DNA from: a virus
Lineage: Duplodnaviria > Caudoviricetes
Virus record (IMG/VR): IMGVR_UViG_3300020047_013271
Location: 4,476-68,475 of that record
Strand: one strand, 5' to 3'
Length of the DNA stretch: 64,000 bases
Shown: positions 1-60,971 of the stretch, piece by piece
Position numbering within the stretch: the stretch's first letter is position 1
How the letters are laid out: every line of letters begins with the position of its first letter
Made by a program: the position numbers and the translations under genes
Notes under the pieces: model-generated
Told to the model about the DNA's origin: nothing
Seen by the model: the letters and a program-made list of their open reading frames with translations, nothing else
Databases searched by the model: none

Positions 1-516
1 TGTGAAAATCTATCGAAACTCTCAACTCCAAGCTTTGACAAAGGACTTTTGATAGTTGGTCACTTTGGAAACGGAAAGACCGCTACGATGCGTGTTTTTG
101 AGCGAATCTTTCAAAACACAAAAGGAATGTCATTCAAGGGATATACAGCCAATGAAGTTGTGGGAATGTTCGAAAAATGTAACGATGATGCCTCGAAGAA
201 AGAGTTTGAACGAAAAATGAATTTTGGATCAAGATATTTTGACGATATAAAAACAGAACGTATCGCATCGAACTATGGCAAGGTAAACATCTTCAAGGAT
301 ATATTCGAAACTCGCTACAACAACAGAATACAGACCGTAAACGACAAAATATTAATCAATAAGACTTTTGCTACTTGCAATTACAAAGATGGTTACGAAG
401 GAAATTTAGAGGTCGCCGTCGATGAATTTCTTGAAAAATACGGCGGTAGAGTTTACGACAGATTATTTGAGATGTACAACATCATCGAGTTCAAGGGAAA
501 ATCGTTCAGAAAGTAA
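1..516 (+). CDS. DnaC/IstB-like P-loop ATPase (helicase loader), 5'-truncated by the window edge
   Basis: Frame is open from base 1. Walker A GHFGNGKT, Walker B-like YFDD, and C-terminal GGRVYDRLFEM..IEFKGKSFR typical of DnaC/IstB ATPases. Confidence 0.8.
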   Translation, partial: CENLSKLSTPSFDKGLLIVGHFGNGKTATMRVFERIFQNTKGMSFKGYTANEVVGMFEKCNDDASKKEFERKMNFGSRYFDDIKTERIASNYGKVNIFKDIFETRYNNRIQTVNDKILINKTFATCNYKDGYEGNLEVAVDEFLEKYGGRVYDRLFEMYNIIEFKGKSFRK

Positions 517-532
517 CTAAAAATTCAAAACT

Positions 533-757
533 ATGAACGCCATAACTCAAAGAAACCGATTAGAATCACAGCTAAAAAGCTATAAGGATTTTGTTCCTTT
601 TTGCCCGGCGGACGGATTGCTAAAACTCATCGGAGAAATGACCAAAATCATCCAAAGAATAGACAAAATAAAGGAGCTTGATATTGATGAATTAGTCAAG
701 GAAGTTCCCTTTTATTTCGACACAAAACAAAGTAAAACTAATTTTAGAACAGTATAA
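533..757 (+). CDS. hypothetical protein
   Basis: 74-aa ORF co-oriented and tightly packed in the operon. Confidence 0.6.
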   Translation: MNAITQRNRLESQLKSYKDFVPFCPADGLLKLIGEMTKIIQRIDKIKELDIDELVKEVPFYFDTKQSKTNFRTV

Positions 758-758
758 A

Positions 759-962
759 ATGAAAGACTACATAGGAGTTCGTTGGATAGAGGAGCATCAA
801 AAGTGGAACGCAAGTATAAGATGTGATGGAGTAACTTATCCTTGCGGTATGCATGTTGACCAAAAAGAAGCAGTAAAAGCCCGTGATAAGATGATTATTA
901 CGAAAGGATTATCAACAAAACTCCAATACTTCAAACCATTGGCTAAATCTAAAACTAAATGA
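759..962 (+). CDS. AP2-like DNA-binding domain protein
   Basis: YIGVRW...KWNASIR......G......EAVKARD pattern of AP2/ERF-like phage domains. Confidence 0.65.
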   Translation: MKDYIGVRWIEEHQKWNASIRCDGVTYPCGMHVDQKEAVKARDKMIITKGLSTKLQYFKPLAKSKTK

Positions 963-1132
963 ATATCTATCATTTTGAATATTGGTTCCGGCATGGAAAC
1001 TTTGAGAAGGATTTCGAGAAAGTAGAGATTAAAGCTGATTCCGAAGCCGAAGCAAATCTTATCGTAAAAGATTTAATGCCTTGGGTGTTTTCAATAAAAT
1101 TATTATCAATTAACGGAGAAAAAACAAATTAA
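959..1132 (+). CDS. small hypothetical protein (57 aa, not in ORF track)
   Basis: ATG overlaps the upstream TGA (ATGA); translates MNIYHFEYWFRH...GEKTN*. Confidence 0.55.
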   Translation: MNIYHFEYWFRHGNFEKDFEKVEIKADSEAEANLIVKDLMPWVFSIKLLSINGEKTN

Positions 1133-1135
1133 ATC

Positions 1136-1480
1136 ATGAAAAAAGAAACTATCAAAGAAGTAAAGGATTTATCGTATTGGAAATTAAATGCTGAAGAAGA
1201 TTATTTAAAAGTCCCAATTAGCGTGTTGAAATATATCAGTGAACTTGAAACAAAACAAGAAAGAATGTATAGTGAAGAAGATATGCAAACTACTTGGAAT
1301 TCATCAGAACAGAATATGCGTTTTCAATTTAGTAGTTCAGTATATAAGAATATTACATTCGAAAAATGGTTTGAACAATTTAAAAAGAAAGATACCTGGT
1401 ACAACGAAGAGCAAACAACCGAGAGAATGAATATCATCGGTCAAAATGGAAATGATGGAACGCACTACGATAACAAATAA
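1136..1480 (+). CDS. hypothetical phage protein
   Basis: 114-aa ORF in operon. Confidence 0.6.
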   Translation: MKKETIKEVKDLSYWKLNAEEDYLKVPISVLKYISELETKQERMYSEEDMQTTWNSSEQNMRFQFSSSVYKNITFEKWFEQFKKKDTWYNEEQTTERMNIIGQNGNDGTHYDNK

Positions 1481-1691
1481 AACTATGAAACTAAGAGAGC
1501 AAATTAAATTATGTGTAGATAATGACCAATTAGAAAAAGTATCCGATGATTTTGCTATTGGATTTGCAGAGTGGTTATATCATTGGACTAACACAAGATT
1601 GCAAAATGGTAATTGGATAATTGGTTTAGGGTTAAAAGCATATACTTCAGAAGAAGTCTTGCTAAAATATAAAAAAGAAAAAGGACTATGA
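1446..1691 (+). CDS. hypothetical phage protein (true start may be the internal MKLREQ)
   Basis: ORF in operon; stop overlaps the next start. Confidence 0.5.
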   Translation: MEMMERTTITNKTMKLREQIKLCVDNDQLEKVSDDFAIGFAEWLYHWTNTRLQNGNWIIGLGLKAYTSEEVLLKYKKEKGL

Positions 1692-2137
1692 GATGCCTTA
1701 ACTGCAAGCAGAAGTTCGTTCCTTCCTATTTCCTTCAAAAACATTGTGACTCTGAGGAATGTAATTATTCAAAACAAGAATATCAATCAATGAAAATGGC
1801 TAAAACTAATAAGCCTTCAAAAGCTATCCCTAAATTCTCTGATAAGCGTAAAGTAGAAAACCTCAAATACCTTGCTCAAAGAATAGTGTTTTTAGGAAAG
1901 AAGGAGAATCAAATTTGCTTCATTGACGGATGCAAAAAAGAAGCAACTACAATAGAGCATTCGGCAGGTAGAATTGGATTTTATGATGATTGGGCAAGAG
2001 ATAATAATGTTTCTCTTTATTTAGACCAACGTTTTTGGAAACCATGCTGCCATGCTCACAATTTAGAGCTTGAGAATAATCCGGAATTATCAAAAGAATA
2101 TCAACTGTCAAAAATCCACGGAGGTAAAAAGCTATGA
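1688..2137 (+). CDS. NinG/HNH-like Zn-binding nuclease
   Basis: N-terminal CxxC...CxxxxC; C-terminal C...C...EH...CCxxHN resembles an HNH core. Confidence 0.55.
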   Translation: MRCLNCKQKFVPSYFLQKHCDSEECNYSKQEYQSMKMAKTNKPSKAIPKFSDKRKVENLKYLAQRIVFLGKKENQICFIDGCKKEATTIEHSAGRIGFYDDWARDNNVSLYLDQRFWKPCCHAHNLELENNPELSKEYQLSKIHGGKKL

Positions 2138-2631
2138 GCCAAAATAAATCTATTACCATAAAAATGCCTCTTATCACACACATCGCATACACTCAGAATA
2201 AAACAAAATCTGATAAAAAGATGAAGATAAATGGTCAAACTATCTACAATGGTTCATTGAATAAATTCAAGCGAGCTATTGTCGTCGAAAATATGCACTA
2301 CTATTTCAACTACAATATTCCTGATGAGTTTCTAAACTTAAACATAGGCGAAGTAGAGAGTATAGACTACATTTTCCACACAGTAATTAATCACGGAAGT
2401 ATTACAATGCGAAATGGAAATCGATGTTGGAAACCGGCTAAAAAAGATTATGTACCCAATTGGGATATCAAAAATCTACGGGATATTTGGGAGAAAACCG
2501 GAGATGATGCATTAGTACTTTCAAAAGTGATTTCCGATGATAACGTAGGCGTTTTGAGGAAAGGTTCTTATGAGTTTCGAGAAGTGGAACACATTGATGA
2601 TTTAGAGTTAGAAGTCATAATAAATTACTAA
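2134..2631 (+). CDS. RusA-like Holliday junction resolvase
   Basis: WDIKN...EKTGDDAL....ISDDN matches the RusA acidic catalytic pattern. Confidence 0.65.
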   Translation: MSQNKSITIKMPLITHIAYTQNKTKSDKKMKINGQTIYNGSLNKFKRAIVVENMHYYFNYNIPDEFLNLNIGEVESIDYIFHTVINHGSITMRNGNRCWKPAKKDYVPNWDIKNLRDIWEKTGDDALVLSKVISDDNVGVLRKGSYEFREVEHIDDLELEVIINY

Positions 2632-2633
2632 TT

Positions 2634-2858
2634 ATGGCAAAACTACCAAGTAAAATAATCATAACTCCTGAGATAAAAGAGCGTCAATTAAAACTACGCT
2701 CTTTCCTTAGAGAGAATAAAGGAATAGAGTTCAAAGAGTTACGCCCGATTGGATTTTCAATAAATATTAGCACTATTCCTGAAGATAAAATAAATGAATT
2801 CCTTTCTATTGCAAATTCGACAAAAATCATTCAAAATGAGGAAAACCGTAAAATATAA
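2634..2858 (+). CDS. hypothetical protein
   Basis: 74-aa ORF in operon. Confidence 0.55.
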   Translation: MAKLPSKIIITPEIKERQLKLRSFLRENKGIEFKELRPIGFSINISTIPEDKINEFLSIANSTKIIQNEENRKI

Positions 2859-3135
2859 AAAAAATAAAATCAGTAATTGCACCCACTAAAACCCCCAAAT
2901 TATGGCAAAATTAAACATGCAACAAAAAGATTATCTCAAAGGAATTGATTCCAACAAAAAACGCAAAAAACTAAAAAAAGCATTCAAAAAAGTAAACGAA
3001 GAAAAGGAGTTAGAAGATTTTACCAAATTATTGATTAAATTGCTCAAAACTCTTAAATCCGATCAAAATAAAAAACCATGAAAAATACAAATGACATTGT
3101 AGTTGTTGATTTCGAAATCGTAAAACCAAAGTAAT

Positions 3136-3170
3136 AAAAAAAGCCTCTACTTAATTGCAGAGGCTTTTTT
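3136..3170. terminator. bidirectional intrinsic terminator
   Basis: AAAAAAAGCCTCT-loop-AGAGGCTTTTTT between convergent operons. Confidence 0.85.
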
Positions 3171-3173
3171 ATT

Positions 3174-6100
3174 TTATTCTTCTTCGTCGATATTATATTC
3201 TTTTTTCTTTTGCTTGATAATCTTCATAGTTTCAGCAATTGATTCATCACTTCCCGTCAAATCTATTTCTGAAACTTCTTCTTTTGTTAAAGCCACATCT
3301 TTTGATATGTAGTATGGGAGTTTTTGTTGCTGTGCAATTTTAATTTCTTGCAACATTTTTATTTTACTCTCAACTCTCGTTAATTTATCATCAACTCTTA
3401 TTTTATCTTTTTCAGAATCGGAAAGTTCGAATAAAGCTTTCTTCTTAGCTTGGTCTTTTATGAATTTTTGCTCTGGAGTATTTCCTTTTTTAGATTCATA
3501 TTCCTGAACGTTTCCAAGACCTAATATTGAATATGCAGTCAGGAACGCTTGAACTCCTTCATAATCTTTTTCTTTTGCTTGTTTTACAGAACCGATAAAC
3601 ATAGGGTAAAAGGAGTAAGCATCTTCTTCTGAAAGTTTTCCTCCAAATGGTGTTACTCTATAAGTTTCTCCAGTAGCTTTATCCACTTCTTCTGTTGAAG
3701 TCATATATTTATGAAATATTTGAAAACCAGGCGATTCTTTATTTATTAAAAATTTTGTAGCTGCGTCACCTCTGCTTTCAATTCCTCCATAACCTTCTCC
3801 AAACTTAACTATAGTTCCGTCTGACTTTTTAGTTTCTTCAGTTAATAGTCTTGCGTACAATGAAATTAGTGGAATGTATCCACCCCAAAAGTCAGCTCTA
3901 AAATTTCCAATTTTAATCTTCCCAAAATCAGAACTTCTCGGATCCGTTTCTAATGTTGCTTCCTCTTCGTCGTCGTCTTTAAATGCATTATAAGAAGCCA
4001 TTATAAACAATATTGTAGCCGACGTTGAAACTACTGACTTAAACATTGTAGCCATTGCCATTTTATTTGCTACTGATGGCTTAAAGTAATTTCCATTTTT
4101 AAAATCCGTTGAATTAGTATGTTGTAATCCATAATAAATAGGATTTAATTGTTGCATTACTGAAGCCATATTTTTAAATGAAAAGAAAAATACATTTAAT
4201 GCTTTTTGATTAAGTTCAAATCCGGCTGGCTTTGCTCTTCCTGAAAAAGTCCTAATGTAACTCGCTAATAATTTATAATCTTCCAAATGATTTATCTCAT
4301 CTTTACCTTCGGCTTTCAACCGTTCTACACCCCTTACAAATTCTTCAAAACGAAGTTGATTTCCATAAATACTCAATCCTCTTTCGACGGCTTCAAATGC
4401 ATTTATATTTTTCCACTGTTCCTTAATTGAAAACTTTTCTTTTTGCTTTATATCAACTTGGTAGTTTTGAAATAATTTATTGTAACGGGATTTTACTGAG
4501 TTAATAAAGCTATCTCCAACTGAACTTCTCTTAGAATTAACAAATTGTTTTCCTCCTAAAGATTCTATGGCTAAAACTGGTGAACTCCAAATAAAATGTA
4601 ATAAATTACCTGAAGCCATTTCCTCACGTACTTCATTTCTTAAATCAGGATGTGTCATTCCAATATCAAGTTTTTTAGCCAAAGCATGAAGCGGATGTCC
4701 TATCAATTCAGACATTACTTTGTTCGTTTTATTTTGCGATCCAATAGCGCCAAACAACTTTATAAACTTACGTCCCAATTCTTTTGGATTTCTCCATAAT
4801 TCACTATAAGTAAAGCCTCTTAACTGAATTCCTATTAAACCTAAATCTAAAGATGCTTTTACAGCACGAGCTAATCCAAGAGCTTCCAATCCCTCATCCA
4901 TTATTTTCTTGGCACGAGATCTGTTTTTTAACTCCTGCAAATACTTCATTTTTTCGTACTCTTCATAAATAGCTTCTTTTTCAGCACGCAAAGTATTCAA
5001 TTCATTATCAGCTAAAATTGGCTTAATTTCTTTTTTAGCAAAATCCTTGTTTTTTATTTTTGTGTTTAAATCCTCTATTTGGTTTTTAATACGAGTTTTG
5101 GCTGTTTTTAGGCGTTGTTGTTCTATTAACCCCGCTTCTTGTCTTAACTGTTTTTTAGTTTCTAATAATGCCTTTTTAGCAGTTCTTAGTTCTTCAATTT
5201 TTTTAGATGTAGCCGGCGTCGGTTTTTCCTTAAATGAAATATCATTAGTATCAATTTCTTCTTGTATTTTTTTAATAGAAGTTTCTAATGATTTTTCTGC
5301 GCTTGCTATTTTTTGTTCTTCGGTCAATTCCGGTTTTCCAACTAAATCATCAAGAATTTGTTTTTTAGCATCACGAATAGTTTTTAAAGCAGTTGCTTCT
5401 TCATCAAGATTTATTGAAGTTCGTTCTACTTTACGTTTTTCTCCATTGGCAATTTGCTTGTCTAAATCCTCTATTTGGTTTTTAAGATGTGATTTTACCT
5501 TATCAATAGCATTGGCCCATTGTTTTTCTAAATCAATAGGTTCCAAGTTTAATTCCTTGGCAAGTCTATTAATATTTCTTCTTAATTCTCTTGCTTTTTG
5601 TTCTGATTTTGGTCTTTTTAATCCACTTTTCAATGGCATTTGTCCATTCATAACATCATCATAAGCAGATAATAATCGGCCATATTCTTTCAGTTTATTT
5701 ACTTCAGCAGTAATCTCATCTTTGTTTGGATTAATTTGCTTTCCGTATCCAGTCAAAGCATCACGAATATCCCTAACATCTGCATCGGGGAATTCGTCTG
5801 CAATATCATCTTTTATTAAAGCTGCTATTTCGTCAATATCCGTATAACCTTGCTCTACATAATCACGAAGCATTTGTGCAGGGATTTTTATTTTCCCTTC
5901 TTCGTTTATGGTAATGCTTTGTAAGTCTGTTACTTTTACATCTCCTTTCCCTCCGGCGTTAGCAAATAATTCAGGTAAATGCTGTCTTGCGCTTTTACCT
6001 AATTCTTTTAGTATTTCGTTTGAGAAATTTGAGAAATCTCCTTTAGCTGTTTTTAATACTAATCCTAAATATTCTCTAAACTCCGGATCAACTAATAAAG

Positions 6101-38599: not shown

Positions 38600-38662
38600 C
38601 AAAGATATAAATTAAAAGACAACAAACGTTTGTTGTCTTTTAAAAAATATTGTATTTTTGCT
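38600..38662. promoter_or_regulatory. divergent promoter with a perfect 32-bp palindrome (38612-38643)
   Basis: TTAAAAGACAACAAAC|GTTTGTTGTCTTTTAA flanked by a TAnnTTTG box on each strand. Confidence 0.8.
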
Positions 38663-38686
38663 GTAATTAATCTAATCAAAATAAAT

Positions 38687-40288
38687 ATGAGTAACACAAT
38701 TTTACGCCAAGTCGTATCAGGTGACGAGGCAAAGCAAAAGCTATTGTCAGGATTAAATAAAAGCTGTGACATAGTTTCGGATACAATGGGTTATCGAGGG
38801 AACAATAATTTATTTGAAACAGTAGGTGGATTACCTAACATTACAAGTGACGGCTGGGATTCATTAGAACAGCTCTTTTGGGAAGACCCGATGGAACACA
38901 TAGCTTGTGAACTATTAAAAGAAGCTTGTAAAAAGACCTTTGAAATCGTAGGAGACAACACAACACTTACTTGTGTATTAGTCCAGGCTTTCTTCAAAAA
39001 CTCTTTGGAGGAATTAAAAAAAGGAACCTCTTCGATTGAAATCAAGCAACGTATTGATGAATCAGTAGAAAAGATATTAGCTTACATTGATAGCATTGCC
39101 GTTCCGGTAGATGATAAATTAATGTATGATATTGCCAAAACTTCGGCACATGGCGATGATACAATCGCTCAAATTGTTCAAGAGGCGTTCATCAAAGCAG
39201 GAGAGTTCGGAATTGTATCTCACAAACGAAGCTTTACCGACGAAACTTTTATCGAACATATTGCAGGAAATCCTATTGACGCCGGTTACGCAAATGAAGG
39301 ATTTATCAATGTAAATGATACGCAATCAGTAGTTTTTGACAATCCATTAGTACTTTGTTCACTGATTAATTTTCAAACCGCCAACGAAGTTATTCCTTTC
39401 TTAGAATATGCTTCACAACAAAACAGACCATTAGTGCTTATCGCTAATATGGAGCATGATATTTCTAACATGATTTTGACAAATGTACAGAATAGTAAGT
39501 ACCCATTCTGTATTATAAAACCACCGTATCAAGGTAAAAAAGGTCGTGAAACAATGGCTGATTTAGCATTGGTTTTTGGCTGTGAAGTTTTGCAGGGAAT
39601 CACTCGTACAAACTACGACGGTAAAGAGCAATTGTATCTTGGTTCATGTGAGCGTATCGAGATTGGTAAAAAAGATTCTGTAATCACACCAAGCAAAACT
39701 CTTGACAAAGAAAAACGTGATGGTAAAATTAAAGACCTTACAGCGCAGATAAAACTTCAAACTAATGAAGGTGAGAAAAACTATTTACGTGAGCGTATCG
39801 CTAAGATTTCAGGCGGAATTTCAACTATTATGGTCGGAGGTGTAACGCCAAGTGAAGTTGAGGAGAAAGTAGCAAGAGTTGATGATGCTTGTTGTGCCGT
39901 TAGAGCTTCTAAAGATGGAGGAGTAGTGTCGGGTGGAGGAACTGTATTATTTGCTTCTACTAATTTAAAAGTAGATAGGGTTACTAAAAATTCTATTATT
40001 GCTCCTATATGCAAGATACTTGATAACGCAAGTGTAAAGCATAACTTAAAAGTAAAAAATAAATTCTTGAGACTTTTTTATAGACCTATTATGACAAGCC
40101 GATCAGCTTGTTTCGGTATTGGCTACGACGTAAAAGAATATAAAGAAGTAAACATGTTCGACGCCGGAATACTTGACACCGCAAAAGGAATTAAAAACGC
40201 CTTGATTAATGCTGTTTCTGCCTCGAATAACTTACTACGTACAAATAATGCGATAACCTTAAAAAGATTTGGACAAGATGGAAAATAA
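38687..40288 (+). CDS. groL: chaperonin GroEL-like (start re-called at MSNTIL)
   Basis: TMGYRG.N, ITSDG, GD.TT, ERIAKISGGI..I.VGG.T..E..EK..RVDDA, GVVSGGG and GILD motifs. Confidence 0.92.
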   Translation: MSNTILRQVVSGDEAKQKLLSGLNKSCDIVSDTMGYRGNNNLFETVGGLPNITSDGWDSLEQLFWEDPMEHIACELLKEACKKTFEIVGDNTTLTCVLVQAFFKNSLEELKKGTSSIEIKQRIDESVEKILAYIDSIAVPVDDKLMYDIAKTSAHGDDTIAQIVQEAFIKAGEFGIVSHKRSFTDETFIEHIAGNPIDAGYANEGFINVNDTQSVVFDNPLVLCSLINFQTANEVIPFLEYASQQNRPLVLIANMEHDISNMILTNVQNSKYPFCIIKPPYQGKKGRETMADLALVFGCEVLQGITRTNYDGKEQLYLGSCERIEIGKKDSVITPSKTLDKEKRDGKIKDLTAQIKLQTNEGEKNYLRERIAKISGGISTIMVGGVTPSEVEEKVARVDDACCAVRASKDGGVVSGGGTVLFASTNLKVDRVTKNSIIAPICKILDNASVKHNLKVKNKFLRLFYRPIMTSRSACFGIGYDVKEYKEVNMFDAGILDTAKGIKNALINAVSASNNLLRTNNAITLKRFGQDGK

Positions 40289-56672: not shown

Positions 56673-57920
56673 TTAGTTTTTAGCGTTAAATTGTTTTTTC
56701 ATTATTTCCGCATATTCAACTTGTGACTTTTTGTTGTAATGTGCGTGCATTTTACTTGTTTTACTCCATCCCAAAACTGAATTCAAAACTTCTTTTTCTA
56801 CTCCGGAGAAATTTGTCGCAAAACTTCGACGACAAACGTGCGACGAAATTAGCAAATATTTTTTGTAATAGCCAATTTTCTTGCGTTTCAAATCCTTATC
56901 AAAAACTTTTCCATAAACCAAATTATCTATATCACACACTTGGCAAATGATTTTTATTTGCTTATTAAATTCTGAACTACTTATTTTTTGCGGTAAGCAT
57001 CCAAAGTTTTCGTTCATTATTTTCTCTACCTGGGGATGAATTGGCATTACGACTTTAGCTCTTGTTTTCTTAGTTTTTATCGTAAAGTTTCCATCACTAA
57101 TATTTGAAATATCAAGCTTCAAAAAGTCAGAAATCCTCAATCCCGTAAAAAGTCCTATCAAAAAGTTTTGCTTTGCAACATTTAGATCATAATCATACGT
57201 GAAATCCTTATCGATTATTTTCTGAATTTCTGCTTCATTTAAATAAACTCCTTCAATATCAGCATCAGGTTCAAAATAAATTCGTTCCTTGAATGCTTGA
57301 GTAACTTCCATATTCATTTCCGTTGCCCGATTGAAAAAGAAACGCAATCGCCCTATGTTTCTTTCTATCGTCGATGTTTGGTAATTTTCAGTTTCGAGCC
57401 AATCTATAAATCCTTCAATATCTTTTTTAGTGGTGTTACGCAATTGCATTTTTTCACCTATTAAAACTTCATACTCGTTAAGAGTTTCGACGAATTTCTT
57501 ATATTGATTCTTCGCCGGTTCTTCCATAAATTTTTTGGCCGAAACTTTCCACTCCGAAGCATGATTTTCAATCCAAAAAGTAGCAAAGTCAGAAACGTAA
57601 ATAGAGTAATCAGGAGTTTTCATTCCTACCTCTAATTTAGGACGCATGAAACTCGACTTTATCACTTTTTGCAACCAAACTTTAGTGATAGAAACTCCTT
57701 TACAAAAATCTTTGTTGTAAGCCTTCAGAACAGAAAGTTTTAATTCTTGAAGTGCAATATTTAACTCATCATTATTTACCGCTGATTGAAGATCTGAATC
57801 CCATTCGTGGTCCATAAGCATAACATTTGTTACCGCAGAAAAGTCCAAACGATTGTGATAAAACCTTATTGATAAACGTTTTATGGTTTTAGTTCCGGAA
57901 AGTTTATAGGAAATGTTCAT
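56673..57920 (-). CDS. tyrosine integrase 1 (Bacteroidota arm-binding type)
   Basis: TGLRISD (R), K, SHVCRRSFAT (HxxR), LGW and HY; N-terminal arm domain. Confidence 0.9.
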   Translation of the reverse strand: MNISYKLSGTKTIKRLSIRFYHNRLDFSAVTNVMLMDHEWDSDLQSAVNNDELNIALQELKLSVLKAYNKDFCKGVSITKVWLQKVIKSSFMRPKLEVGMKTPDYSIYVSDFATFWIENHASEWKVSAKKFMEEPAKNQYKKFVETLNEYEVLIGEKMQLRNTTKKDIEGFIDWLETENYQTSTIERNIGRLRFFFNRATEMNMEVTQAFKERIYFEPDADIEGVYLNEAEIQKIIDKDFTYDYDLNVAKQNFLIGLFTGLRISDFLKLDISNISDGNFTIKTKKTRAKVVMPIHPQVEKIMNENFGCLPQKISSSEFNKQIKIICQVCDIDNLVYGKVFDKDLKRKKIGYYKKYLLISSHVCRRSFATNFSGVEKEVLNSVLGWSKTSKMHAHYNKKSQVEYAEIMKKQFNAKN

Positions 57921-57969
57921 AATAAAGAGTTTTGATGTAGCAAATTTACACATATAAATTCATTTGACA

Positions 57970-58044
57970 ATGAAATATACAAAATAATTCACTTTTTCAT
58001 TGTCATATGTGAAATATTGCTTACATTTGTGAAATAATTTTCAC
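57970..58044. promoter_or_regulatory. divergent int/xis promoter region with operator-like RTGAAATA sites
   Basis: ATGAAATATAC (57970), GTGAAATATTGC (58009) and GTGAAATAATTTTCAC (58029-58044) around TACATTTG. Confidence 0.55.
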
Positions 58045-58062
58045 TTAAAGCGAAACTATCAT

Positions 58063-58374
58063 ATGAAAGTAGATAACGAAAAAAAAGACAAATTAGAGTT
58101 TGTAAAGCAAACACAAGCTGAAACTCAAAAAGTCCACATTGGAACATTAAGACCAAAGCGAGGACATTCATTATTTGAGGTGAATCTTAAATTAAAAACA
58201 ATTAGCCTTGCTGACTTTAATAAAACCGAAGTCGTAAAATTTTAGGATGCCATGAAAGGAACTATATCAGTAAACAAAAAAGTTGATATAAAAGACGATT
58301 GCATTTATATTTCTGCCTTAAACAAGAGAAATGTAATTAAGGTTTTGCATCGTGATCACGGAATAATATTTTAA
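58063..58374 (+). pseudogene. hypothetical gene interrupted by an in-frame TAG (58243-58245)
   Basis: Frame continues ..VVKF*DAMKGTISVNKKVDIKDDCIYISALNKRNVIKVL..; 104 codons in total. Confidence 0.55.
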
Positions 58375-58390
58375 ACAAAACTCCAAATAA

Positions 58391-58636
58391 ATGAAAAAAC
58401 TATTCATAGAGCTAACCGAAGAGCAAATAAATAAAATCGTCGAATCTCGCCAACCCAAGAAAAACAACCTTACTTTCTCTATTATAGGAGCGTCTAAGGA
58501 GTTAGGAGTTTCGGAATCTACAATGCATCGGCTTATAAAAAATAATTTCATCAAAACTCTTAAACTTGGAAAATCCCCACGCATAACTCAACAAGAAATT
58601 GACCGGTATAAAAGTGCAGATGATGGAGATGAGTGA
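58391..58636 (+). CDS. excisionase-like HTH protein
   Basis: FSI..ASKELGVSESTMHRLIK...LG...RI.Q.EI.RY (HTH_17-like). Confidence 0.75.
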   Translation: MKKLFIELTEEQINKIVESRQPKKNNLTFSIIGASKELGVSESTMHRLIKNNFIKTLKLGKSPRITQQEIDRYKSADDGDE

Positions 58637-58772
58637 TAACGGTCGATGATATGAGAGGATTTTCGGAAGGATAAATCACAAACCTTTCAGTTCAAGACCA
58701 AAGTAAAAAAGTACAAACCCAAAAATTAAATTTATAAACCAAGCCGAAAATCTCTTATATCATTTGTTAGGG
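58634..58772 (+). repeat. attC-like site 0
   Basis: TAAC..TGATATGAGAGGATTTTCGG / CCGAAAATCTCTTATATCA..GTTAGGG inverted arms with one extra G. Confidence 0.75.
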
Positions 58773-58795
58773 AATCGGCTTTTAAAATCAAAATT

Positions 58796-59110
58796 ATGTA
58801 TTATATCATCTCACTAACTCACACAATGCGCCACGAAAAATATATCACTTTATGGCGACCAAATAACAAAGGATATTGTTATTCAAAAGAAAATGCAGGG
58901 CTTTATGAAACGCCAAAAAAAGGTTATCACGATTCGTGTGATAATATGCCAATATCAACTGATGATGCAGGAAAACTGTTTAAAAAACTGCCTTACGATA
59001 ATGTTGAAAAAGATATGATTCCAAACAATAAAGAAACTTGGAAAATATTAAACGCTAAAATGACAAAGAATGGTCTTGTTAAACGGGAAGTTGTGCAAGC
59101 TGTTCCCTAA
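58796..59110 (+). CDS. cassette 1 ORF, hypothetical protein
   Basis: Its stop codon TAA lies inside CCCTAAC of the next attC-like site. Confidence 0.75.
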   Translation: MYYIISLTHTMRHEKYITLWRPNNKGYCYSKENAGLYETPKKGYHDSCDNMPISTDDAGKLFKKLPYDNVEKDMIPNNKETWKILNAKMTKNGLVKREVVQAVP

Positions 59111-59237
59111 CGGTTCTCGGCTATGCGAGGTTTGGGATTAAAGAAGCCTAAACCTCCGATTTAGCCAAATAATAACAGATACAAACTGAACTTTAAATTA
59201 AACCAAATACCCAAATCTTGCATAACTGATGTTAGGG
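59105..59237 (+). repeat. attC-like site 1
   Basis: CCCTAAC..GGCTATGCGAGGTTTGGG / CCCAAATCTTGCATAACT..GTTAGGG. Confidence 0.8.
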
Positions 59238-59269
59238 CAAGTACGGATTATTAAACTAAAAATATTGTT

Positions 59270-59422
59270 ATGAAAACAGAAGATTTTATAAATAGAAAAA
59301 TTCAATCACTTTGGAATAAACAACCTAAAAACGCAAATGAAGCGCATTTCAGAGCAGAAGAAATAACACGACTTGAAAAAATGATAACCAAAAAACACAC
59401 TAAAAATGGAAAAGTTAATTGA
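59270..59422 (+). CDS. cassette 2 ORF A (50 aa)
   Basis: MKTEDFINRKIQSLW...KNGKVN*; below the ORF-track length cut-off. Confidence 0.55.
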   Translation: MKTEDFINRKIQSLWNKQPKNANEAHFRAEEITRLEKMITKKHTKNGKVN

Positions 59423-59564
59423 AAAGTATAAAAAAAGATTAGAAATATTAAAGGAAAATAGAGCGCAAACAGTAGATACAAATACCGACTGTGAAAATGC
59501 AGTTTATGACGATGCTATTAATAGAGTTGCTGAATTTATACGTGATTTGAAATCATTAATATAG
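59406..59564 (+). CDS. cassette 2 ORF B (52 aa)
   Basis: MEKLIEKYKKRLEIL...RDLKSLI*; ends 6 nt before the attC-like site. Confidence 0.6.
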   Translation: MEKLIEKYKKRLEILKENRAQTVDTNTDCENAVYDDAINRVAEFIRDLKSLI

Positions 59565-59570
59565 TATTTG

Positions 59571-59627
59571 CCCTAACGATGCGCGCTTTGAGAAGCTCTT
59601 TGGAATTTCCCAAAGTGCTTGTTATGC
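59571..59627 (+). repeat. attC-like site 2
   Basis: CCCTAAC..GCGCTTTGAGAA / TTCCCAAAGTGC..GTTATGC. Confidence 0.75.
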
Positions 59628-59639
59628 GAAGGGTGCCTC

Positions 59640-59671
59640 GTTATTCGAAAGGTTTGCGCCTTTCGAATAAC
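59640..59671. repeat. perfect 13-bp inverted repeat at the array end (candidate primary recombination site)
   Basis: GTTATTCGAAAGG-TTTGCG-CCTTTCGAATAAC. Confidence 0.7.
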
Positions 59672-59722
59672 ATAGAATATGTATTTTAAACTTATTAATA
59701 TTAATAAAACCAATACTTAACG

Positions 59723-60556
59723 ATGAATATTTCTGAACACATAGGTAAATTCGAGCAGGAAATGAAAAGACAAGGATATAGTAAAAATACTATTGAAAAT
59801 TACTCATCTTGTCTTAATGTTTTCTTTTCAAAATCTACAAAAGACCATCCAAAAAATATAAATGAAAAGGATATAATGGATTTTTTATCTAATTGTGTTC
59901 AGATTAATACACAACGTAATTATCATTCTGCAATTAAAAAGTTTTACGCTATTTGTTTACATCAAAAGGATAAATTTAAACATATTACTTATGCAAAACA
60001 AAGTAGAAAATTACCAATAGTTTTAAGTGTAGAAGAAGTTCAGAAAATGTTCTCTGTTTGCGAAAACTTGAAGCACAAAGTAATTCTCAGTTTACTTTAC
60101 TCTTGCGGATTACGAGTTTCGGAGCTAATCAATCTAAAATGGTCGAATATTGATCGTAGCCGAATGATTATTAATATTATTGGAGGAAAAGGAAATAAAG
60201 ACCGTCAAGTTATGCTTGATGTTTCATTGATTCCATTATTAGAAAAATATTTTTTCGAATATAAAACAAAAACTTATGTTTTAGGAGGTCAGTTTTCAGA
60301 CCAATATTCAGCCACAAGTGTTAATCAAGTAATGAAACAGCTTGCTACAAAAGCAGGAATAAACAAACGAGTTTACACTCATTTAATGAGACATAACTGC
60401 TTCACGCATTTAGTTGAAGCCGGAATAGACATAAATTTGATACAAAAACTTGCGGGGCATTCAAATGTAAAAACAACTTTGCTTTATACTCATATTTCGC
60501 ACAACTTAATAAGTAAAATACAATCCCCTTTACAAAATATAATATTAACAAATTAA
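59723..60556 (+). CDS. tyrosine recombinase 2 (XerD/IntI-like, 277 aa, no IntI-specific insertion)
   Basis: GYSKNTI..Y SAM-like N-terminus; CGLRVSE, GKGNK, THLMRH and AGHSNVKTTLLY catalytic motifs. Confidence 0.9.
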   Translation: MNISEHIGKFEQEMKRQGYSKNTIENYSSCLNVFFSKSTKDHPKNINEKDIMDFLSNCVQINTQRNYHSAIKKFYAICLHQKDKFKHITYAKQSRKLPIVLSVEEVQKMFSVCENLKHKVILSLLYSCGLRVSELINLKWSNIDRSRMIINIIGGKGNKDRQVMLDVSLIPLLEKYFFEYKTKTYVLGGQFSDQYSATSVNQVMKQLATKAGINKRVYTHLMRHNCFTHLVEAGIDINLIQKLAGHSNVKTTLLYTHISHNLISKIQSPLQNIILTN

Positions 60557-60566
60557 ATAAACAAAA

Positions 60567-60971
60567 ATGGAAGTAGTAGGAAAGATTAAATTAATTGATA
60601 CGACTAAAGAAGTCGGCTCTGGAGGATTCAAAAAGCGTGATGTTGTTGTTACAACAGACGAACAATATCCACAGCATATTTTGGTTCAGTTTGTTCAAGA
60701 CAAATGTGACTTGTTGAATAATTTTCAAGTAGGAGAACCTGTAAAAATCGACATCAATTTAAGAGGTAGAGAATGGACAAATCCACAAGGAGAAACTGTT
60801 TATTTCAATACTATTCAAGGATGGAGGATAGCGAAACAAGATGCTTCTCAACAAAGTCCGGCTCCACAAGGAGGAAGCGCCGTCGAAAATTATAACACGA
60901 AGAATAATCCTAAAGAGTTTCAGCCATCCGGAGGAATTCCCGAAGACGAACCGGACGATTTGCCTTTTTAG
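60567..60971 (+). CDS. DUF3127 OB-fold single-stranded DNA-binding protein
   Basis: FKKRDVVVTT.EQYPQ.I..QF.QDKC, INLRGREW, FNTIQGWRI and acidic tail DDLPF. Confidence 0.85.
   Translation: MEVVGKIKLIDTTKEVGSGGFKKRDVVVTTDEQYPQHILVQFVQDKCDLLNNFQVGEPVKIDINLRGREWTNPQGETVYFNTIQGWRIAKQDASQQSPAPQGGSAVENYNTKNNPKEFQPSGGIPEDEPDDLPF

Follow-up and report, generated by a model that had tools for sequence, protein, structure and literature searches.

Locus organization

The DNA analysed here, referred to as the window, is a 64,000-nucleotide (nt) stretch covering bases 4476-68475 of the 68,475-bp IMG/VR virus record IMGVR_UViG_3300020047_013271, which carries direct terminal repeats and is rated complete. 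Its genes include those for a portal protein, virion structural proteins and tail fibres, identifying the virus as a tailed phage. Within it, a tandem array of imperfect palindromes and compact gene cassettes lies between the gene of an HTH_17-family DNA-binding protein and that of a 277-amino-acid (aa) tyrosine recombinase. It is likely that the array and the enzyme form a phage-borne, integron-like site-specific recombination platform run by this Xer-like recombinase. The analysis thereby supports the core claim of the first-pass annotation, a reading of the bare sequence, which had proposed a non-canonical integron-like cassette system in a phage, with a recombinase clade distinct from IntI.

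The array follows the plan [hairpin + cassette]n-attI-recombinase, represented in the window by [site 1 + cassette 1][site 2 + cassette 2][site 3 + empty cassette]-attI-recombinase (Table 1). The number of hairpins equals the number of cassettes, with the first hairpin abutting a conserved gene and the last cassette abutting the attI-like site. The conserved left anchor is the HTH_17 gene. Under the model of crossover at TAAC boxes, site 1 heads cassette 1. The first-pass annotation had described an array of two gene-bearing segments; both are present, but a third, 24-nt cassette devoid of open reading frames (ORFs) and the attI-like site had been overlooked.

Table 1. Features of the cassette array and its surroundings, in window coordinates
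Feature	Position	Strand	Details
Hairpin site 1 (attC-like), 133 nt	58637-58769	+	TAACG...TGTTA; TAAC 58637-58640, GTTA 58766-58769
Cassette 1, 338 nt	58770-59107	+	One ORF, 58796-59110, 104 aa; flanks GGGAATCG / CTGTTCCC, complementary 6/8
Hairpin site 2 (attC-like), 127 nt	59108-59234	+	Heads cassette 2; model R1, full length
Cassette 2, 339 nt	59235-59573	+	Flanks GGGCAAGT / ATTTGCCC, complementary 7/8, with the usual G.T at position 7
Cassette 2 ORFs, overlapping	59270-59422 (50 aa), 59406-59564 (52 aa)	+	No family matches
Hairpin site 3, short class, 70 nt	59574-59643	+	Heads the empty cassette; fold pairs TAACGA...TCGTTA
ORF-less mini-cassette, 24 nt	59644-59667	+	TTCGAAAGG-TTTGCG-CCTTTCGAA; two complementary flank extensions only, 8/8
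attI-like site, TAAC-ATAGA-ATATGTAT	59668-59684	+	Array boundary and inferred insertion point; 51-55 nt before the recombinase ATG
Xer/IntI-like tyrosine recombinase, 277 aa	59723-60556	+	SAM_4 + Phage_integrase (Pfam); presumed cassette recombinase
HTH_17/excisionase-family DNA-binding protein, 81 aa	58391-58636	+	Pfam HTH_17, 2.4e-06; NCBIfam TIGR01764, 5.6e-07
Larger tyrosine integrase, 426 aa	56673-57953	-	SAM_5 domain (Pfam)
Larger tyrosine integrase, 388 aa	61011-62177	-	Pfam; brackets the module with the 426-aa integrase
GroEL-type chaperonin, 552 aa, phage-encoded	38630-40288	+	phrog_5725, E = 2.7e-92

Hairpin sites

Site 1 folds on the + strand into a single long hairpin closed by its TAAC and GTTA boxes, with 3 extra nt on the left in the alignment of its arms. 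The arm pattern of site 2 (||||o|||||:||:||||||) is common to sites of other loci. Site 3 folds on the + strand at -25.1 kcal/mol (z = -5.8), its best closing pair being TAAC 59574 with GTTA 59640-59643. The three palindromes of the first-pass annotation are retained for sites 1 and 2 and for the start of site 3, whereas the right end of site 3, placed there at GTTA 59620-59623, is corrected to GTTA 59640-59643. Likewise, the 3-4 extra nt on the left arm attributed to all three sites hold for sites 1 and 2 and for nearly all related sites, but not for site 3.

The minimum-free-energy folds of sites 1 and 2 alone are unimpressive (z = -1.4 and -3.0), because their 75-nt loops dominate, and the evidence for these two sites is comparative. 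A covariance model of the long-loop class, R1, was built from 45 sites, all from other contigs and none from the window. Searched against both strands of the 64 kb, R1 recovered site 2 with 86.8 bits (E = 4e-14) and site 1 with 69.7 bits (E = 5.8e-11), with nothing else under E = 2.9. As a model of the long-loop class, R1 misses the 70-nt site 3, for which the basis is its own fold, the flank logic described below and a 98% copy in a related contig, L002. Chance is excluded as a source of these sites.

Related loci were collected through the recombinase, comprising 29 viral contigs (57-98% identity), 80 loci from species genomes and 39 metagenome loci, and a site finder recorded TAAC...GTTA with complementary arms upstream of the recombinase gene. 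The comparison set amounted to about 60 loci, drawn from viral contigs, Bacteroidota metagenome-assembled genomes and metagenomes. When 48 long-class sites are aligned, neither TAAC nor GTTA varies, and compensatory double changes affect 16 of 17 stem pairs. Paired cells reach 90.9%, compared with 62.9 ± 1.1% after shuffling, a level attained by none of 500 shuffles, while controls with slid partners give 33-47% pairing; double-change cells number 279 against 93 ± 8 in shuffled alignments. Selection therefore acts on the structure of the sites, not on their sequence. The shared make-up consists of TAACG, an asymmetric spacer of 4-5 nt on the left and 1 nt on the right, an imperfect stem of about 20 bp in which one C x A mismatch and two G.T pairs have fixed positions, an A-rich loop and TGTTA. 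Across loci, the sites measure 49-133 nt and occur in one orientation throughout. The first-pass annotation had pointed to a bias toward G:T wobbles on the + strand, and the larger sample bears this out, with 82 G:T against 27 A:C in the arm alignments and, among the cells of modelled pairs, 89 against 9; one wobble pair, G5.T144, is present in 47 of 48 sites.

The + strand of the loops, which are about 75 nt long, is rich in A (loop columns about 35-120 of alignment A3), and the loops of otherwise unrelated sites share the semi-conserved blocks TACAAAACAA and TTTAAATTAAA. A by-eye look at the + strand of the hairpin loops gave no Bacteroidota -7 motif (TAnnTTTG). Wastewater Logan contigs were compared with the window over 57900-60700, no run having more than 34% of the words of this stretch. 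In these contigs, hairpins 1 and 2 (58636-58769 and 59109-59235) display a depth of about 115-740, compared with about 0-40 for the adjoining genes, suggesting that both hairpin sequences are common to many different elements in those communities.

Cassettes and the attI-like site

In all three window cassettes the left flank is complementary to the cassette's own right flank, as the first-pass annotation had claimed for the two gene-bearing ones. Between neighbouring sites across loci, the 8 nt after the GTTA of one site and the 8 nt before the TAAC of the next are complementary at a mean of 6.47/8 positions, with 29 of 32 pairs reaching at least 6, while the two flanks of a single site average 2.69/8 and random pairs 2.76/8. 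One mismatch recurs, G.T at position 7, and the resulting pattern is GTTA-N6-GT ... AT-N6-TAAC. Flank complementarity is thus a property of each cassette. Only in an excised circle could such pairing bring the site stem to 12-14 bp, and this speaks for a circular intermediate.

Cassettes are compact, mostly hold one gene and are uniformly oriented. Over 66 cassettes, ORFs amount to 10,712 aa on the + strand, reading toward the recombinase, against 314 aa on the - strand. The first-pass annotation had noted ORF stops in or next to TAAC boxes, and this is borne out: the ORF of cassette 1 ends with the TAA of the TAAC at 59108-59110, and the TGA of the HTH_17 gene abuts TAAC 58637. A perfect 13-bp inverted repeat, GTTATTCGAAAGG/CCTTTCGAATAAC, occupies 59640-59652 and 59659-59671 and reads GTTA-TTCGAAAGG-TTTGCG-CCTTTCGAA-TAAC. 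An interpretation of this repeat as a terminator was rejected, since it represents a 24-nt cassette made of two flanks, ending at a hairpin-less fourth TAAC at 59668.

The array terminates at this TAAC (59668-59671), and the flank to its left pairs with the flank that follows the last hairpin. Among the 54 loci with a recombinase of 55% identity or more, 48 have the motif TAAC N3-6 ATAT[GA]T[AG] at -53 to -57 of the recombinase start and the other 6 have near-variants; below 55% identity, the motif is present in only 1 of 29 loci. In the window it occurs once, both strands considered. The motif changes with the recombinase subclade, being ATAGAATATGTA in the window's group and TACTATATGTA in others.

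The recombinase

The 277-aa enzyme was placed by profile scores and fold matches. Its catalytic residues R131, K156, H220, R223, H246 and Y255 are invariant in 25 homologues, in agreement with the intact set read from the sequence earlier. The reported absence of the IntI insertion is also confirmed. The match to the IntI model TIGR02249 is split (3-177 and 239-314), leaving model positions 178-238 unmatched, with 19 residues between the two parts. In the alignment to the solved structure of IntI4 (2a3v), query residues 176-198 face chain residues 180-245, with about 43 residues skipped, and the AlphaFold2 model (mean predicted local distance difference test score, pLDDT, 81) has no helix between H167-180 and H197-210, the place of the I2 helix.

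The best NCBIfam match is XerA_Arch with 202.5 bits, under its cut-off of 220. TIGR02249 reaches 180.3 bits (cut-off 265) and NF011946 107 (cut-off 435), while XerD scores 174.3 against 329.6 and XerC 159.2 against 335. The top Foldseek matches are archaeal XerA (4a8e, 5hxy) and IntI4 (2a3v), with IntI4 as the second-best solved structure. The enzyme is not an IntI by any defining test, nor is it an equivalog of a named Xer protein.

The protein family is large: identity to the window recombinase is 72% or higher for more than 120 clusters (90% identity level), which their sources call only 'XerD' or 'tyrosine-type recombinase'; homologues at 88-91% identity include P0001-P0007 and P0032. Among cultured phages, no recombinase homologue exceeded 34% identity, and a metagenome scan returned no full-length recombinase closer than 75%.

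Relatives and cassette turnover

Arrays of TAAC...GTTA sites lie upstream of the recombinase in most loci with enough upstream sequence, consistent with the association anticipated by the first-pass annotation. Its converse, homologous phages with the same genes in fixed order and no palindromes, is not what the comparison gave: related phages differ by whole cassettes, with breakpoints at the site boxes. L002, whose recombinase is 98% identical, matches the window at 99% from 59668 onward, and window 59573-59671, covering site 3 and the empty cassette, corresponds to L002 474-572 at 98%. In L002 this unit sits between two hairpins, 3.4 kb from the recombinase, with three further units between it and attI. 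Both homology blocks stop exactly at TAAC boxes. Two other contigs, L003 (recombinase 92% identical) and L030, resemble the window at attI and at the recombinase start (94-95% identity) but differ again in their arrays, and their homology with the window begins exactly at the attI TAAC. Among these four loci, only one unit is common to the window and L002 and one to L003 and L030. By these comparisons, cassette turnover is fast.

Contigs of four independent wastewater runs depart from the window at 58636, 58765-58769, 59107-59112, 59230 and 59667, and three wastewater contigs have the attI-recombinase junction joined to other DNA. In L007, an HTH_17 gene with 70% aa identity to that of the window directly precedes a five-cassette array. 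The arrays of L007 and the window share nothing and their recombinases are 73% identical, whereas the flanking DUF3127 gene is 92% and the 388-aa integrase 96% identical. L007 and a further locus, L016, whose recombinase genes are 72% identical, have a common cassette that is 92% identical over 852 nt, an instance of horizontal cassette exchange between diverged platforms.

Other arrangements were encountered at the edge of this family. The Polaribacter phages Freya_1 to Freya_10 (MT732463-MT732472; L111, L113) range from 43,978 to 48,920 bp, and their integrase, 30% identical, shifts from position 71 to 4168, indicating extra DNA with small hypothetical genes just upstream of it. Our site finder gave no clear TAAC/GTTA array in this extra DNA and no convincing array in Freya_10 or P12002L. 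A second site type, TAACA...ACGTTA, 85-157 nt long, occurs 2.5-5 kb downstream of distant homologues (38-42% identity) in Bacteroidota chromosomes and metagenome-assembled genomes (L068:7980-9444, L091:7516-10027, L055:9463-10291, L063:8519-8644). L063 has a single site. The other three have rows in which most neighbouring pairs are complementary at 7/8 flank positions, and in L068 a + strand ORF lies between consecutive sites. These sites may belong to another integron-like family or to a canonical-integron family in Bacteroidota.

Cargo and hosts

The 104-aa ORF of cassette 1 has phrog_23101, a family of unknown function, as its only family match, with no Pfam or NCBIfam match and no ESM Atlas lead. 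The 69 cassette ORFs scanned across loci include 16 DNA methyltransferases (N6_N4, C5 and Dam types) and 4 PAPS-reductase-like proteins. Single cassettes carry a TET-associated glycosyltransferase, an Acb2/Tad1-hairpin protein, a nucleoside deoxyribosyltransferase-like protein, an RNA ligase/HAD protein and a radical SAM protein. By its family names, this cargo fits a role in counter-defence. One cassette carries a further tyrosine recombinase: the 1.9-kb L002 cassette encodes a 326-aa SAM_4 + Phage_integrase protein together with two other ORFs (L002:1460-2437).

Contigs with close homologues were binned mostly with Chitinophagaceae, Saprospiraceae, Flavobacteriaceae and Pedobacter. The first-pass annotation had spoken of a Bacteroidota phage, and this binning lends weak support to Bacteroidota as the probable hosts.

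Genomic setting

The 5.5-kb stretch around the array holds three tyrosine recombinase genes (Table 1). Because the phage has two other, larger integrases, the 277-aa enzyme should be dispensable for lysogeny. The phage is probably temperate, or the integrase-bracketed module is a recombination hotspot. A second variable spot lies just upstream of the HTH_17 gene, at 58055-58377, and has no TAAC/GTTA hairpins. In contigs of four other metagenomes, its ORFs at 58063-58245 and 58252-58374 are swapped for 44-74 other letters, with joints from 58055/58059 to 58376/58377.

Proposed mechanism

At the attI-like site (TAAC 59668-59671 plus ATATGTA), a short distance upstream of its gene, the 277-aa recombinase would insert and excise small circular units. 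A unit would comprise a structured hairpin site and, behind it, a compact cassette, and in the excised circle the complementary first and last 8-10 nt of the cassette would extend the TAAC/GTTA stem. Cleavage would fall between the A and the C of 5'-TAAC-3', in attI as well as at the hairpin's 5' end. In integrons, the bottom strand is cleaved between the A and the C of AAC. The reaction of the folded strand with attI would parallel that of bottom-strand attC with attI, followed by resolution through replication. Cassette genes would be read toward the recombinase, presumably from upstream phage promoters, and the cargo of relatives, mostly genes for DNA modification and other counter-defence functions, suggests that the platform may function as an exchangeable bank of anti-defence genes.

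The first-pass annotation had considered the recombined strand undecidable from the sequence. Three lines point to the + strand as most likely the folded one, namely the breakpoints at TAAC boxes, the strand that carries AAC in attI and the wobble bias. The annotation had also placed the circle junctions at GTTA boxes; crossover at TAAC boxes predicts them instead at 58637/59108/59574/59668.

Several points weigh against this mechanism. The wobble argument is confounded, as the + strand is also the mRNA sense strand and RNA folding could add to the bias. The enzyme has no I2 helix. In integrons, the I2 helix of IntI reads the extrahelical bases of the folded attC. In the phage sites the extra bases lie on the arm next to the inferred cut, opposite to the arm that bears them in canonical attC, and the analogy may fail in detail. 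The common cassette of L007 and L016 starts exactly at TGTTA and ends at TAACGTT, with unrelated hairpins on both sides, and several diverged homologous cassettes have unrelated upstream hairpins and a downstream hairpin shared by none. Exchange at the GTTA box, or another form of hairpin replacement, must therefore also occur, which a simple one-box model does not predict. Junctions that go back on themselves, as expected of circles, were absent from the contigs of the four wastewater runs over the stretch compared, and skip joints from 58783 to 59090/59096 and from 59261 to 59557 were discounted, one side measuring only about 20 nt. For the window's own cassette ORFs (104, 50 and 52 aa), Pfam, NCBIfam, PHROGs and ESM Atlas give no usable function. 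Finally, the enzyme is tied to the sites only by their co-occurrence.

Alternative explanations

The co-occurrence of enzyme and sites would also suit mobile cassettes moved by another enzyme, whether host XerC/D, host IntI or another phage recombinase. In that case the 277-aa protein would have another task, for instance the resolution of phage genome multimers at TAAC-ATATGTA, a site that the cassettes would merely exploit. Integrative mobile elements exploiting Xer (IMEX), such as CTX phage, use XerCD/dif in this way. The Xer-type family scores of the enzyme (XerA 202.5 and XerD 174 bits) and the name XerD given to its relatives in databases agree with such a role, and attC sites in phages can be used by bacterial IntI1 (Qi et al. 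2023, PMC9892861). We nevertheless regard this explanation as improbable, because in 48 of 54 loci, on very different phage backgrounds, the spacing between the attI motif and the recombinase start is constant, and the sequence of the motif varies along with the recombinase subclade. If the 277-aa enzyme acts at TAAC-ATATGTA at all, the insertions are still its work. Canonical integrons are very rare in Bacteroidetes (IntegronFinder 2.0; PMC9024848), which makes a host IntI an unlikely driver. Less probable again, and in our estimate very unlikely, is a fragment of an ordinary bacterial integron, a cluster of attC sites lacking an integron integrase (CALIN), that was acquired by the phage beside an incidental recombinase. 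The AAC/GTT end boxes, site lengths of 49-133 nt within the attC range and flanks following the R''/R' logic of integrons all resemble such a fragment, and phage CALINs with methyltransferase cassettes have been published (PMC9892861). The phage sites, however, differ consistently from attC in their 12-14-bp extended R box, their spacer of 4-5 versus 1 nt and their fixed C x A and G.T positions; all 66 cassettes have their genes antisense to the canonical direction; no IntI is present; and about 50 loci have, conserved beside their arrays, a recombinase other than IntI together with an attI-like site of its own.

The palindromes could also be intergenic structural or regulatory repeats, such as RNA stabilisers, terminators or elements resembling repetitive extragenic palindromes (REP) or miniature inverted-repeat transposable elements (MITE), with no part in recombination. 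Their intergenic position on the sense strand, a wobble bias of the G.U-compatible kind that suits RNA folding and the repeat-like excess depth of hairpins 1 and 2 would be in keeping with this. Such repeats do not account for flanks that are complementary across each cassette, for the constant spacing between the hairpin-less TAAC-ATATGTA and the recombinase, for the whole-unit differences with breakpoints at boxes or for the presence of the ORF-less unit at different array positions in two phages, so that this explanation is largely refuted and carries a very slight probability. Slightest of all is the chance that the 12-14-bp inverted repeats (GTTA-N6-GT ... AT-N6-TAAC) are inversion sites at which the recombinase flips segments in the manner of shufflons or phase variation. 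Every cassette is bracketed by an inverted repeat with a tyrosine recombinase nearby, and tyrosine-type DNA invertases are weakly matched in NCBIfam (47 bits, cut-off 222). Against inversion, no inverted cassette was found among the 66, the repeat varies between cassettes and so provides no fixed binding site, and relatives differ by the presence or absence of units, not by their inversion.

Implications

Beyond the single locus, it is somewhat more probable than otherwise that a large family of probably Bacteroidota phages runs its own integron-type platform, using an Xer-like recombinase that never acquired the I2 helix of IntI and maintaining a stock of counter-defence genes. If so, gene capture through a folded hairpin and a double-stranded site would either have arisen independently of integrons or predate IntI. 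On the prevailing view, integrons cannot recombine without the I2 helix specific to IntI. A widespread system combining the integron layout with a plain Xer-like enzyme would offer a direct test of this dependence and a second, independent model of single-strand hairpin recombination. Gene-capture platforms would belong to phages too, not to bacteria alone.

Viruses would, in this case, stock and swap counter-defence genes, including DNA methyltransferases, DNA-hypermodification enzymes, an Acb2/Tad1-like sponge and RNA repair functions, as a mirror image of the bacterial integrons that stock defence systems. A quickly exchangeable anti-defence arsenal, suggested by the cargo of relatives, could explain host-range shifts of environmental Bacteroidota phages, and the unannotated small cassettes, including the three ORFs of the window, would constitute a catalogue of candidate counter-defence genes. 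The compact enzyme and its sites may also serve as a cassette-assembly tool.

Comparison with known systems

The gene order had initially been considered unusual, but it is that of integrons. The 5' end of the recombinase gene lies beside a double-stranded insertion site, the array leads away from it, and each cassette has one imperfect palindrome on its far side. Further likenesses include conserved AAC/GTT end boxes, a stem whose sequence varies with compensatory changes, a cassette start complementary to the box before its own site, compact cassettes and array differences by whole cassettes. In layout, only the orientation of the cassette ORFs is reversed, toward attI and the recombinase. 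The promoterless genes of integron cassettes point away from attI and are expressed from Pc, whereas the phage cassettes follow no Pc-type logic. The phage recombinase lacks the IntI insertion with its I2 helix and scores under the IntI cut-offs. The sites differ as well: by eye, those of the phage have a 12-14-bp extended R box, and attC has an unpaired central spacer with extrahelical bases on the other arm, in place of the asymmetric spacer and extra bases next to the inferred cut. Finally, the system is carried by a phage, whose likely hosts are Bacteroidota.

True integrons and small attC clusters have been described in 21 phages, with some of their sites usable by IntI1 (Qi et al. 2023, PMC9892861). 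The phage CALINs of that study share with the present system cassette-type sites and methyltransferase cassettes, and one example comes from a Polaribacter (Bacteroidota) phage. They are, however, sporadic canonical attC sites detected by IntegronFinder/HattCI, at least 2 per phage, accompanied either by no dedicated recombinase or by a true IntI, and the study describes no Xer-like recombinase, attI-like site or family-wide array turnover (PMC9892861).

Xer systems resemble the phage platform in their enzyme. XerA is the best match in both sequence and fold (4a8e, 5hxy), and the simple pair of a SAM-like and a catalytic domain is the same. CTX phage offers a precedent: there, an enzyme of the Xer type that has no I2 helix carries out recombination between a folded single-stranded hairpin and a double-stranded site, and replication follows. 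The phage enzyme differs in being encoded by the element beside its own site, not by the host, and in falling under the Xer equivalog cut-offs. Where dif is a 28-bp site and CTX has a single phage attP, the phage sites are 49-133-nt hairpins in tandem arrays bounding cassettes, and the conserved site beside the 277-aa gene is TAAC N5 ATATGTA, which bounds the cassette array. The pdif modules of Acinetobacter plasmids are likewise discrete gene modules between Xer-type sites in varied contexts. Their sites are 28-bp double-stranded XerC-spacer-XerD sequences of alternating orientation, acted upon by host XerC/D. The phage sites, in contrast, are long hairpins (TAACG...TGTTA) in one orientation, accompanied by an insertion site and a dedicated recombinase.

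A full-text literature search, with subscription-only papers outside its scope, returned no description of this phage cassette system. The system combines integron-like logic with a different enzyme clade, a different site architecture, reversed genes and a viral carrier.

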